IMG/VR virus record: IMGVR_UViG_2667527959_000008
Coordinates: 1 to 5,913 of that record
Reading direction: 5' to 3' (one strand)
From: a virus
Taxonomy: Duplodnaviria; Heunggongvirae; Uroviricota; Caudoviricetes
DNA length: 5,913 bases
This document shows positions 2,984-5,608 of this stretch, one piece after another (position 1 is the first letter of the stretch; each line of letters opens with the position of its first letter). Below the pieces are notes generated by a model. It saw only the letters and a program-made list of their open reading frames with translations. It was not told where the DNA came from and made no database searches. The position numbers and the translations under genes were made by a program.

Positions 2984-3094
2984 CTCCATAGATAAATAAT
3001 TTGGGTTTTTATCGTGCACCATTGACAGTCATCCTTGACCACGCCGGGCACCCGACCGTATACCGGGCCGTTCGGTACTAAAAGTACATTTTTA

Positions 3095-3325
3095 TTACAT
3101 AACAAACTGCTGTTTACCGATACGGCGAATCTGTGCTGCTGAGTACTTGCCGCCTGATGCCTTGGCGATCTTATCCGCATATTCGGTTTCACCAGTGAAC
3201 TCGGTACGCGGCAGAGAACCACGCTCAAGCCACTTATAGATGGCTTTTGGCGTAAGTCCACAAACATCAGCCACAACAGAAACTCGAACGGATTTGATAA
3301 CTTCTCCAAACGTAACTTCGTTCAT
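3095..3325 (-). CDS. cro: Cro-like HTH repressor
   Basis: 76-aa ORF with a helix-turn-helix segment (VADVCGLTPKAIYKWLERG). Strong SD AGGAGA 5 nt upstream of the ATG; divergent from cI across an operator region; followed by cII. Confidence 0.75.
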   Translation of the reverse strand: MNEVTFGEVIKSVRVSVVADVCGLTPKAIYKWLERGSLPRTEFTGETEYADKIAKASGGKYSAAQIRRIGKQQFVM

Positions 3326-3397: not shown

Positions 3398-3412
3398 TGA
3401 ACTTATGGTTCA
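3398..3412. promoter_or_regulatory. Operator OR (cI-proximal copy), palindrome TGAAC-N5-GTTCA
   Basis: TGAACTTATGGTTCA, identical to 3341-3355. It contains the ATG (3405-3407) proposed as the cI start. Confidence 0.7.
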
Positions 3413-4112
3413 ACAGAAAGAGCGTGAAACTTTCTCGCAGAGGCTTGCGCTGGCCTGTGATAAAGCGGGATTACCTTTGCATGGTAGGCAGGCTGATTTA
3501 GCTGTCAGGCTTAAGGTCACACCAAAAGCCATTAGTAAATGGTTCAACGGGGAGTCAATACCAAGAAAAGACAAGATGGAATCTCTGGCTTCGGTGCTGG
3601 GAACTACTGCTGCATATCTGCATGGCTATGCTGATTATGACGGTATCACGGTAAATCATCTATCAAGATCAAATGATTCTTATCGTGTTGATGTATTGGA
3701 TGTTCAGGCGAGCGCCGGGCCAGGAACCATGGTTTCCAATGAATTTATAGAAAAGATAAGAGCAATTGAATATACGCCCGAGCAGGCAAGAATTTTATTT
3801 AATGGAAGGCCACAGGAAAGCGTAAAAGTCATCACGGTTCGCGGTGACAGCATGGAGGGAACCATCAATCCGGGAGATGAGATCTTTGTTGATGTATCCA
3901 TAACCTATTTTGATGGAGATGGCATTTATGTGTTTGTATACGGGAAAACAATGCACGTTAAGCGCCTGCAAATGCAAAAGAACAGGCTTGCCGTCATCTC
4001 TGACAATGCCGCTTATGATCGATGGTACATAGAAGAAGGTGAAGAAGAGCAACTTCACATTCTAGCCAAAGTCCTCATTAGGCAGTCAATCGATTACAAG
4101 CGATTCGGATAA
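3405..4112 (+). CDS. cI: CI-type prophage repressor (N-terminal HTH, C-terminal S24/LexA-like autopeptidase domain)
   Basis: HTH segment (QADLAVRLKVTPKAISKWFNG), Ala-Gly cleavage site (QASAGPG), catalytic Ser in RGDSMEG and Lys in HVKRL. The ORF is open from 3240, but that part overlaps cro; in-frame ATGs at 3348, 3360 and 3405 are all possible, and 3405 is chosen because it follows the operators and promoter. Confidence 0.85.
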   Translation: MVQQKERETFSQRLALACDKAGLPLHGRQADLAVRLKVTPKAISKWFNGESIPRKDKMESLASVLGTTAAYLHGYADYDGITVNHLSRSNDSYRVDVLDVQASAGPGTMVSNEFIEKIRAIEYTPEQARILFNGRPQESVKVITVRGDSMEGTINPGDEIFVDVSITYFDGDGIYVFVYGKTMHVKRLQMQKNRLAVISDNAAYDRWYIEEGEEEQLHILAKVLIRQSIDYKRFG

Positions 4113-4119
4113 AAATAAA

Positions 4120-4216
4120 TTTCCTTAAAGTTCACTAACTTATGATGTAGTGAGCTTTTTATACCCATAAAATGTACTATTGGTACTTTACATTAATGAA
4201 CTTTAAGTACATTATA
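4120..4216 (+). promoter_or_regulatory. Candidate OL/PL region (operator-like half-sites and an early-left promoter candidate)
   Basis: Operator-like 15-mers: 4197-4211 TGAACTTTAAGTACA (11/15 to the OR 15-mer) and 4120-4134 TTTCCTTAAAGTTCA (10/15). An inverted repeat TCACTA/TAGTGA (4132-4137 / 4148-4153) contains AACTTATG, shared with the OR core. Promoter candidate: -35 TTTACA (4187-4192) with a -10 in ATTATAAGT (4211-4219). The position just after cI corresponds to lambda OL/PL. Confidence 0.4.
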
Positions 4217-4388
4217 AGTCCATCGAAACAACACAGCGTTTCGGTCAGTCGAACGGCGCGACAGTAAACCATGCGTCGGACCATAGGCGGGCTCAGGAAG
4301 AGCGGCAATTATGGCAAAGCGATTTACCAGCAGCTCTTTGCGAGGGGCTGACGGCAAATCTACTCCACTTATTTAAAAGAGACGGTAT

Positions 4389-4562
4389 ATGGATAATCAG
4401 GATAATGAGTTAAGAAAGGTTGTTCAGGAACTTGCTGATGAAGAAGGCATCAGCTTTTCCGATGCCCTAGATGTTTCGATTAAAGCGCTGCGTTATGAGG
4501 TAGAGCGCAGAAAATCGTTTAACGGTGAAGCTGCTTGTGATGGCTCTGCAATTACTTCTTAG
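4389..4562 (+). CDS. Small acidic hypothetical protein (57 aa)
   Basis: ORF MDNQDNELRKVVQELADEEGISFSDALDVSIKALRYEVERRKSFNGEAACDGSAITS, absent from the supplied track (presumably below its length cut-off). Weak SD (AAGAGA 8-13 nt upstream). About 13 acidic versus 7 basic residues. Its 3' end overlaps the convergent minus-strand gene by 11 nt. Confidence 0.35.
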   Translation: MDNQDNELRKVVQELADEEGISFSDALDVSIKALRYEVERRKSFNGEAACDGSAITS

Positions 4563-4830
4563 CCAAGTACCAAGAGGTGTCTGCGGCTTCGGAAACCAGT
4601 ACGTAATAGCTTTGCTTTACACTACTAGCTATACCTCTGACTTCCTCTCTAACGTTATATGCAGTTGATGTTTTTACGGTTGTATATTCAGCTGTTGGGA
4701 GGTTAAACCAAGTGCCATTACCATCCTGTATCTCACGCGAATAACCCTTTGCTTTCATCTTTTCATGAAGATTTTCATAGTCTTCAGAATCAGCGCCGCG
4801 CAACTCAACTCGAACAATATATCTTGCCAT
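4552..4830 (-). CDS. Hypothetical protein (92 aa), own promoter, transcribed opposite to the early-left genes
   Basis: Start chosen at the ATG at 4828-4830 (MARYIVRVELRGADSEDYENLHEK...), preceded by AGGA about 9 nt upstream. The 139-aa reading from 4971 would cover the promoter, repeats and terminator hairpin. Predicted alternating beta/alpha small protein. It faintly recalls a prophage-associated DUF family, but I cannot name it with confidence. Confidence 0.6.
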   Translation of the reverse strand: MARYIVRVELRGADSEDYENLHEKMKAKGYSREIQDGNGTWFNLPTAEYTTVKTSTAYNVREEVRGIASSVKQSYYVLVSEAADTSWYLAKK

Positions 4831-4845
4831 AAGAAGATTCCTATA

Positions 4846-4890
4846 TTGACTGTGGAATGAGCAACATATCAGTTTCCTTTGACTGTGGAA
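4846..4890. repeat. Two perfect 12-bp direct repeats TTGACTGTGGAA (4846-4857 and 4879-4890)
   Basis: Exact 12-mer repeated at 33-bp spacing. One copy lies in the spacer of the candidate promoter and one in the leader of the 92-aa gene. Confidence 0.7.
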
Positions 4891-4895
4891 AGCAA
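4866..4895 (-). promoter_or_regulatory. Candidate sigma70 promoter for the 92-aa minus-strand gene
   Basis: On the minus strand: -35 TTGCTT (plus 4890-4895), 18-nt spacer, -10 TGATAT (plus 4866-4871), about 30-nt leader to the ATG at 4830. Confidence 0.4.
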
Positions 4896-4944
4896 AGGGA
4901 CACGGGCCGGGCGTGGATAAAAATCCCGGCACCAACCATCGCAA

Positions 4945-4968
4945 AGCCGCCACCTGAGCGGCTTTTTT
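4945..4968 (+). terminator. Plus-strand rho-independent terminator
   Basis: Stem AGCCGC (4945-4950) / GCGGCT (4958-4963), 7-nt loop CACCTGA, followed by T6 (4963-4968). Oriented to stop plus-strand transcription that has run antisense across the 92-aa gene. Confidence 0.65.
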
Positions 4969-5101
4969 CATACCTAAGAAACTTCGCAGAGGTTTCTAAG
5001 TTATGAGACGGCGGCCATCCACCGCCCATTGAAACACTGAATAAATGCGTTGAAGTCTTGTATTAACCGTTCCGTTCGCCGCGATAAGGCCAAGAGGATT
5101 T

Positions 5102-5311
5102 ATGAGTGATTTGGAGTTGGGCTTAAAGATATACGCATTATGGTTTGTCGGGACGTTTCTGCTCGGCATAGCAATCAACTCGCTGACGAAAAAAGAACAT
5201 CGCCAGCCAATTTCAAAACTAGCCATTGACCATGTACGCATGTCTTCCGCAATAACCATTGTGGGCCTGATTGTGTGCGGTATGGTCTGGTTCTTATTCA
5301 AGGTGGTGTGA
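5102..5311 (+). CDS. Small membrane protein (69 aa, two predicted TM helices)
   Basis: Strong SD AAGAGGA 4-5 nt upstream of the ATG. Hydrophobic segments IYALWFVGTFLLGIAI and AITIVGLIVCGMVWFLF. Stop TGA (5309-5311) is 1 nt before the next ATG (5313). Confidence 0.6.
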   Translation: MSDLELGLKIYALWFVGTFLLGIAINSLTKKEHRQPISKLAIDHVRMSSAITIVGLIVCGMVWFLFKVV

Positions 5312-5312
5312 G

Positions 5313-5471
5313 ATGACAGTCACCCACAACGGCAAGCAGTACACCGACAAAAAGCTCAACGATAACGAGTGGCAGCTGACGTCGGTATCGGCACCGCGCG
5401 ACAAGCTGACGCTGAACCGCCAACAGATGAATATCGCTGGCCTCCTGGAACAGGTTGAGGTGAAGGTATGA
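5313..5471 (+). CDS. Hypothetical small protein (52 aa)
   Basis: ATG at 5313 preceded by AAGGTGG. Stop TGA (5469-5471) overlaps the next ATG (5468-5470) as ATGA. Sits in the position occupied by cIII (before kil) in lambda, but no sequence resemblance recognised. Confidence 0.5.
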   Translation: MTVTHNGKQYTDKKLNDNEWQLTSVSAPRDKLTLNRQQMNIAGLLEQVEVKV

Positions 5472-5608
5472 TCAATCATCACCTGCTGCGCGCCGCGCAG
5501 AGCAAAGCAGCCATTGCCCTGTTTATCGGTGATGGCGCCATGTGGATGGCAGCCTACGACGAAATGAAGGTTGCCATCGGTTATCCGTGGCATAGAAAAA
5601 CAGCCTAA
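5468..5608 (+). CDS. Small protein (46 aa), possibly Kil-like host division inhibitor
   Basis: ORF MINHHLLRAAQSKAAIALFIGDGAMWMAAYDEMKVAIGYPWHRKTA. Size and position in the early-left operon fit lambda kil (47 codons), and the A-x-Q-x-K ... FIGD motif resembles my recollection of Kil. Homology is unverified. Confidence 0.45.
   Translation: MINHHLLRAAQSKAAIALFIGDGAMWMAAYDEMKVAIGYPWHRKTA

Follow-up and report, generated by a model that had tools for sequence, protein, structure and literature searches.

In this lambdoid prophage, the early-left operon very probably owes its antitermination to a cis-acting put RNA and not to an N protein. The window, by which we mean the whole stretch of DNA analysed (5,913 nt), holds the immunity and early-control region of the prophage. 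It carries two put elements, putL downstream of PL and putR downstream of PR, whose identity, position, fold conservation and base pairing are documented below together with the absence of N. Polymerase binding and terminator read-through by these two elements would follow by analogy with phage HK022, where put acts as nascent RNA, forms two stem-loops and stays bound to the β′ zinc-binding domain of the very polymerase that transcribed it, with no phage protein needed (PMC9378689, PMC8632103). The mechanism is already known: what we describe is a member of a described class of antiterminator RNA, with an HK639-identical core under the HK022 PL promoter. Among the options that a preliminary description of this DNA had raised for the missing N, antitermination by an RNA of the HK022 put type is supported by our covariance model, by sequence identity and by covariation. 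On this reading, both a terminator between PL and the early-left genes and a missing N are to be expected, which settles an apparent paradox, and the prophage joins the few, well-studied lambdoid phages in which an RNA acting on its own renders polymerase resistant to terminators.

Early genes, the PL promoter and its leader

On the minus strand, the window carries genes for a DnaB-like helicase (56-1432), an O-like replication protein (1429-2376), cII (2674-2973; Pfam Phage_CII, 118 bits) and cro (3095-3325), while the plus strand encodes a 235-aa cI repressor of the HK022 immunity type (3405-4112; Pfam HTH_3 and Peptidase_S24). Because of this layout, PR, for which the promoter scan returned a PR-like site at 3384-3357 on the minus strand, reads leftward in window coordinates, and PL reads rightward 3′ of cI. 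The cI gene has the length of the HK022 CI gene (708 nt), and its exact protein occurs in 371 blocks of the public collection. Between the repressor and the early-left genes, the stretch 4050-5150 is a mosaic of HK022, HK639 and phi80 pieces, as judged by megablast against phage genomes.

The first of these pieces, 4050-4226, is 98% identical to HK022 and takes in the end of cI (its final 63 nt), two oL sites and the pL –35 and –10 elements. Through this alignment, the two operator sites of HK022 record X16093, each labelled there as ‘oL pot. repressor binding site’, map to 4173-4187 and 4197-4211, where they overlap PL. The promoter scan placed PL at 4187-4215 on the plus strand, with a –35 element TTTACA (4187-4192), a 17-nt spacer and a –10 element CATTAT (4210-4215), coinciding with the –35 and –10 annotated for pL in X16093. 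By the HK022 putL numbering in PMC9378689, the transcript would start at A4222. The short 5′ leader that follows (4222-4245, plus strand) is predicted to fold into a hairpin, AUCGAAAC...GUUUCGGU, of –7.3 kcal/mol, and HK639 and phi80 have a longer leader, of which alignments show it to be a shortened form.

Further along the PL transcript lie a 57-aa acidic open reading frame, which is its first and encodes a hypothetical protein (4389-4562, plus strand), and a 92-aa YmfI/GhoS-like gene on the opposite strand (4552-4830, minus). The two are convergent with an 11-nt overlap, and PL transcripts cross the 92-aa gene in antisense. Its product matches Pfam GhoS at 22.7 bits, slightly above the cut-off of 21, as well as phrog_8894, and is named GhoS by PGAP; the match to NCBIfam YmfI_phage reaches 59.6 bits, under the cut-off of 140. 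No GhoT-like partner is present, since the sole neighbour is the convergent and hydrophilic 57-aa frame. A weak candidate promoter for the 92-aa gene was seen at 4891-4863 on the minus strand.

The early-left genes themselves begin 3′ of position 4968, as the preliminary description had it, and could be identified from Pfam and PHROG matches. They comprise a 69-aa membrane protein (5102-5311; phrog_25975), a 52-aa frame (5313-5471; phrog_6396) and Kil (5468-5608; Pfam Lambda_Kil, 42 bits), all on the plus strand. In front of them, the strong terminator proposed for 4945-4968 (plus strand) holds up as a predicted intrinsic terminator, with a GC stem (GCCGC at 4946-4950 pairing with GCGGC at 4958-4962), a 7-nt loop and a T6 run at 4963-4968, and with a folding energy of –11.4 kcal/mol when flanking A/U pairs are counted. 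It is the homologue of tL1A of phi80, an annotated rho-independent terminator: the window is 90% identical to phi80 over 4942-5150, a stretch that in phi80 begins with the final codons of N and runs past tL1A, and the terminator stem and T-run are kept while the loop differs. Over 5009-5166 the two are nearly identical. In phi80, tL1A follows N, whereas the window has the module of 57-aa frame and YmfI/GhoS-like gene in that place. Our generic terminator scan did not list the site, we think because it extended the stem into the flanking A/T runs and counted too few T residues in the tail. In the Rfam scan, the sole hits were to the IsrK sRNA (RF01394) at 4892-4968, where a score of 21.3 bits falls short of the gathering score (50) and derives chiefly from the terminator hairpin, and to Trp leaders, again on the terminator; both were rejected as terminator look-alikes.

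The putL and putR elements

The element downstream of PL, a putL antiterminator RNA of the HK639 type, occupies 4246-4319 on the plus strand and begins 25 nt 3′ of the predicted PL start. Stem I, the pseudoknot/triplex region, covers approximately 4247-4279 and stem II approximately 4281-4314. Over 119 nt, the window (4240-4358) is 97.5% identical to HK639 (34208-34326), and from 4246 to 4315 it is identical base for base; GenBank record HM208537 of HK639 annotates 34187..34312, a feature of 126 nt, as “putL-like antiterminator RNA”. In a three-way alignment, this HK639-like piece also carries the conserved core of HK022 putL. The second element, putR, lies between cro and cII at 3011-3078 on the minus strand and is identical in sequence to HK022 putR, with covariance-model matches of 58.9 and 59.7 bits. 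It stands about 270 nt downstream of PR, and in HK022 this distance is likewise about 270 nt (PMC9378689); we found no difference from HK022 in sequence or in the cro-cII site.

As a test independent of the HK639 likeness, we trained a covariance model (R2) on 20 put sequences, with the window and every HK639-type sequence left out, and ran it with filters off. It gave exactly two matches in the window, 80.6 bits at 4246-4319 (plus strand; E about 1e-17) and 59.7 bits at 3011-3078 (minus strand), while the third-ranked match reached 9.2 bits.

Residue by residue, the window element can be read against the mutagenesis of HK022 putL, in which the 3-7/15-19 duplex, U28, G35, G45 and A64 are essential (PMC9378689). 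We took +1 as the A of CCCAUAGACG, so that A3 of HK022 corresponds to window 4247; this numbering was adopted because each residue named in PMC9378689 then meets a matching base. All of the essential residues and segments listed in that study are retained in the alignment. The A3-G7/C15-U19 duplex is kept through a compensatory change from A-U to U-A, and A9, U28 (4272), G35 (4279), G43-G47 (4287-4291), C59-A64 (4303-4308) and the –10-like sequence AACCAT are present.

For a wider view of the family, a degenerate pattern of the shared put core was run on IMG/VR and returned about 120 stretches, approximately half of which are plainly put. At several of these loci, a copy of the putL type and one of the putR type lie 1.2-2.5 kb from each other, on opposite strands. 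We aligned 34 distinct put sequences: pairing holds in 95% of cells and eight pairs have changed on both sides, against 25-51% pairing in a control in which the 3′ partners were slid by 1-3 columns; the observed covariation score was reached by none of 500 shuffles. The helix formed by columns 9-13 and 29-33 is invariant, in part because the search pattern fixed those columns. One GTDB representative, Kluyvera sichuanensis, contains the exact PL/put junction, there with an HK022-type stem II and other downstream genes, so that this locus is not the source of the window. Among complete E. coli genomes, none covers over 71% of the window, and no record was found of its O-like protein.

Folding energy alone would not expose a put element. 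The z-scores are only –1.0 to –1.4, and the interlocked 5′ duplex of stem I does not appear in the minimum-free-energy fold. An Rfam scan of the window at E-values up to 10 returned no put family, as Rfam has none and hence no curated threshold either, so both elements go unflagged in a standard scan. The dozens of distinct put variants from IMG/VR could seed a curated model.

Two annotated phages frame the comparison. HK639 putL has the same two-stem core, the same 40-nt hairpin next to it and the same orientation downstream of PL. HK639 differs in having its own promoter and operators where the window has those of HK022, in a distance from +1 to put of about 60 nt (about 25 nt in the window), and in its first downstream genes, HK639_45 and HK639_44, in place of the 57-aa frame and the YmfI/GhoS-like gene. 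The HK639 putL is said to have been tested by King et al. in 2011 (J Bacteriol 193:5784). For activity of the HK639 subtype, the support is the GenBank annotation together with that reported test; we found no discussion of HK639 put in the open literature, and HK639 is not named in the supplement of PMC9378689. With HK022, whose putL structure was solved on RNA polymerase by cryo-EM (PMC9378689), the window shares the PL promoter, the two-stem architecture, the essential residues, the AACCAT sequence and the absence of N. The put element starts at about +26 in the window, behind the small leader hairpin, and at +3 in HK022, and no nun gene follows the window putL, unlike in HK022.

Stem II differs between the two as well. 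Its base is GAGCGC/GCUGCUC in HK022 and CCAUA/UAUGG in the window, and both pair, but the lower stem II of HK022 has a bulged U68 that neither the window nor HK639 (CCAUA/UAUGG) possesses. Deletion of U68 abolishes antitermination by HK022 put (PMC9378689), and the lack of an equivalent bulge in the HK639-type stem II counts against put activity here. On inspection of the 34 put sequences, the bulge shifts in position or is missing, so it is not a family-wide feature; and because the annotated member HK639 also lacks it, a missing bulge is no bar to put membership.

Absence of N and proposed passage through the terminator

Between the cI stop (4112) and the terminator, the preliminary description had found no N-like gene, and our open reading frame list, family profiles and tblastn search lead to the same result for both N and Nun. 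The 57-aa frame is indeed the longest on the plus strand from 4112 to 4968, and it is acidic and not Arg-rich: 13 Asp and Glu residues against 7 Arg and Lys give it a net negative charge. It contains no Arg-rich stretch or RNA-binding motif, matches no family above noise in Pfam, PHROG or NCBIfam, and is named ‘hypothetical protein’ in every source. The exact protein was found in 1439 blocks of the collection, behind leaders with and without put. No family matches were obtained for the other plus-strand frames, of 47 aa (4525-4668, GTG start), 49 aa (4857-5006) and 26 aa (4271-4351). The last of these, an Arg-rich frame that had been set aside as too short to be N, is not a gene: it falls inside put, and its ATG is that of the conserved CCAUGCG of stem I. 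In annotation, the conserved AUG of put yields a spurious small reading frame. A tblastn search of phi80 N and HK022 Nun against all frames of the window gave nothing significant (best E 0.085 in this 5.9-kb database).

Nor did we find the RNA sites that N would use. The canonical boxA (YGCTCTTWA) has no exact match in either early leader, and a lambda-type nut site, with boxA and boxB, is absent from both. Matches to boxA with one mismatch number 7 against 4.7 expected, a chance level, and the leaders hold none on the correct strand. The sole boxA-like sequence in the PL leader, GCUCUUU, is buried in the stem of a hairpin at 4321-4361. Lambda N/nut has the same role and map position, carrying PL and PR transcripts past tL1- and tR1-type terminators, whereas the window has no N-like protein, canonical boxA or boxB, and the agent here would be the nascent RNA itself.

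The prophage would do without N because a put RNA sits downstream of each early promoter. Once repressor leaves oL, RNA polymerase would start at the HK022-type PL at about 4222 and make the 25-nt leader and then the putL of about 70 nt (4246-4319). The nascent RNA would fold into two stem-loops, a stem I whose 5-bp duplex (4247-4251/4259-4263) is interlocked with a second helix, and a stem II at 4281-4314. By analogy with HK022, the folded put would bind the β′ zinc-binding domain of its own polymerase and stay on, and the polymerase so modified would resist pausing as well as intrinsic and Rho-dependent termination. Owing to this resistance, it would get across about 380 nt of untranslated RNA, antisense to the YmfI/GhoS-like gene and a likely Rho target, and past the tL1A-type terminator, so that kil and the recombination genes would be transcribed. 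On the PR operon, putR (3078-3011, minus strand) would act likewise.

Three other accounts have to be weighed against antitermination by put. The preliminary description had suggested that the operon beginning at 5102 might have its own promoter in 4969-5101, in which case PL transcripts could simply stop at the terminator. The gap of 133 nt could house a promoter, and consensus scans overlook weak or activator-dependent ones. However, no –35/–10 pair with 9/12 or even 8/12 consensus matches occurs on either strand of 4969-5101; from 5009 on, the near-identical phi80 segment lies within the PL operon between tL1A and tL1B and has no annotated promoter; and a put element close upstream would be purposeless. 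We regard an independent promoter as extremely improbable. Highly improbable, too, is the suggestion that antitermination depends on an unconventional protein, either the 57-aa product or a factor encoded outside the window, perhaps using the hairpin at 4321-4361 with its boxA-like GCUCUUU as a site. It gains some plausibility from phi80 N, which is not typically Arg-rich and shows a faint match to the 57-aa frame (29% over 34 aa, E 0.085 in the 5.9-kb database), from the strong conservation of the hairpin right upstream of this frame, and from sibling prophages that have the 57-aa frame without put and still must pass the terminator. The phi80 N match is not significant, though, and the 57-aa product belongs to no family, lacks an RNA-binding motif and is net negative in charge. 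The hairpin does not co-vary with the 57-aa frame and precedes many unrelated first reading frames (e.g. in HK639 and at locus L005), and put on both operons already explains antitermination. In the window, this proposal of a protein encoded elsewhere or of an unconventional kind finds no N or Nun homologue and no canonical boxA to support it.

The third account accepts both put elements but takes them to be inactive relics in a defective prophage whose early-left genes are silent. Integrity was examined within the 5,913-nt window of the prophage, which leaves it some room, as does the HK639-type stem II without a U68-type bulge. Against it, every residue reported as essential is intact, and cI, cro, cII, the O-like and DnaB-like genes and kil are all open and full length. 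As the putL core is identical to that of the viable phage HK639 and putR to that of HK022, we consider decay of the elements very unlikely. A point against the put account is that sibling prophages carry the same module of 57-aa frame, YmfI/GhoS-like gene and terminator without any put. In these siblings, either another element acts or the operon is expressed without put.

The hairpin at 4321-4361 and leaders without put

Immediately after putL, the plus strand encodes a conserved hairpin at 4321-4361, UUUACC-CAGCUCUU-UGCG-AGGGGCUG-GGCAAA, with a predicted folding energy of –17.0 kcal/mol. Although these 40 nt fall in the 126-nt putL-like annotation of HK639, the hairpin behaves as a separate module. 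Among the loci that we fetched, put precedes the hairpin by exactly 76 nt in 43 instances, and another 81 stand behind leaders without put; at least five unrelated leaders precede the hairpin and many different first reading frames follow it. A search for covariation lent its predicted fold no support: sequence differences fall in the loop (UGCG, UACG, CACG) or in the outer stem, and those in the outer stem are uncompensated.

We take the hairpin as possibly an autonomous, portable RNA module placed before the first PL reading frame of many lambdoid phages and not a part of put, and it could, together with the non-coding leader of about 230 nt described below, make up an undescribed antitermination device, RNA-based or dependent on host Nus factors. 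This proposal is a tentative one and, on balance, unlikely to be right; were it so, such devices would have the hairpin in common as their active portion. A processing site or an anti-Rho site are possible alternative roles. The leaders without put, which lie outside the window, are the sole part of this analysis that might lead to something new.

The commonest of these alternative leaders is non-coding; measured from the transcript start, it spans about 230 nt up to the hairpin, or 265 nt up to the hairpin end. Neither put nor a visible N occurs in prophages with this leader, one of which lies on scaffold_5 of ENA ERZ28602016; these prophages share with the window the module of 57-aa frame, YmfI/GhoS-like gene and terminator as well as the early-left genes. 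Across 32 distinct copies, the leader is constant in length with few substitutions. Over roughly the first 80 nt, it matches the PL leader of phi80, and this part carries a boxA-like sequence, UGCUCAUUA / TGCTCATTA.

Put elements of the two early operons

In the right operon, the window carries a second element of the cis-acting antiterminator RNA put, putR (3011-3078, minus strand), identical in sequence to HK022 putR and lying between cro and cII, approximately 270 nt 3′ of the PR-like site. Together with putL (4246-4319, plus strand), put is therefore present in both early operons. In the HK639 right operon, the record annotates an ‘M3-like RNA’ 3′ of cII rather than putR (HM208537 37910-37969; 1011-1070 of our comparison locus L136), and comparison by eye found no resemblance of this RNA to the window or to the leader of the put-less sibling prophages (L129 type).

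The Kluyvera sichuanensis locus (NZ_JABBJF010000032; L138 4636-4960) matches the window in its HK022-type PL, the 25-nt leader and put stem I, but differs in having an HK022-type stem II and other downstream genes. As stem I is shared and stem II is not, even put itself contains recombination breakpoints, which separate its two stems.

The conserved hairpin 3′ of put and sibling prophages without put

A conserved plus-strand hairpin (TTTACCAGCAGCTCTTTGCGAGGGGCTGACGG, 4321-4361) contains a boxA-like GCTCTTT. Hairpins of this type were found 43 times after put and 81 times after unrelated leaders without put, in every case about 20-30 nt 5′ of the first ORF of the operon, with variation confined to the loop (UGCG, UACG or CACG).

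The module of the window comprising the 57-aa ORF, the YmfI-like gene, the terminator and the early-left genes is common to sibling prophages L129, L004, L126-L128 and L131-L134. The covariance model found no put on either strand of these siblings, and no N-like gene is among the genes called in 20 kb. The position of put is instead taken by a highly conserved non-coding segment of approximately 190 nt (L129 9745-9935), which is a candidate antitermination device of another kind; directly 5′ of it, a boxA-like TGCTCATTA is located in the shared phi80-like leader.

Genes and terminator of the left operon

The 92-aa YmfI/GhoS-like gene (4552-4830, minus strand) is convergent with the 57-aa ORF (4389-4562, plus strand), the first of the PL transcript, with an 11-nt overlap, so that PL transcripts pass through it in antisense. 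PGAP labels it GhoS antitoxin, though it scores only marginally against the family profiles (Pfam 22.7 bits, cut-off 21; NCBIfam 59.6, cut-off 140), and no GhoT-like partner is present.

In Rfam, the stretch 4892-4968 (plus strand) weakly matches IsrK, an sRNA of Gifsy-1 (21.3 bits against a gathering score of 50); the matched stretch comprises an upstream hairpin (4904-4932, -13.9 kcal/mol) and the terminator; L129 gives the same weak match. Further downstream, the 69-aa membrane ORF (5102-5311, plus strand; phrog_25975) has a start and N-terminal coding sequence near-identical in phi80 (JX871397 32262-32299), where, according to the record, the counterpart is not annotated as a gene and that stretch contains the Rho-dependent terminator tL1B.

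Repeats in the O-like gene

Inside the O-like replication gene, direct repeats with units such as TTCATGTGCGG (1819-1961) recur at a spacing of 12 nt and encode a His/Ala-rich stretch. By analogy with the lambda ori within O, they look like origin iterons.
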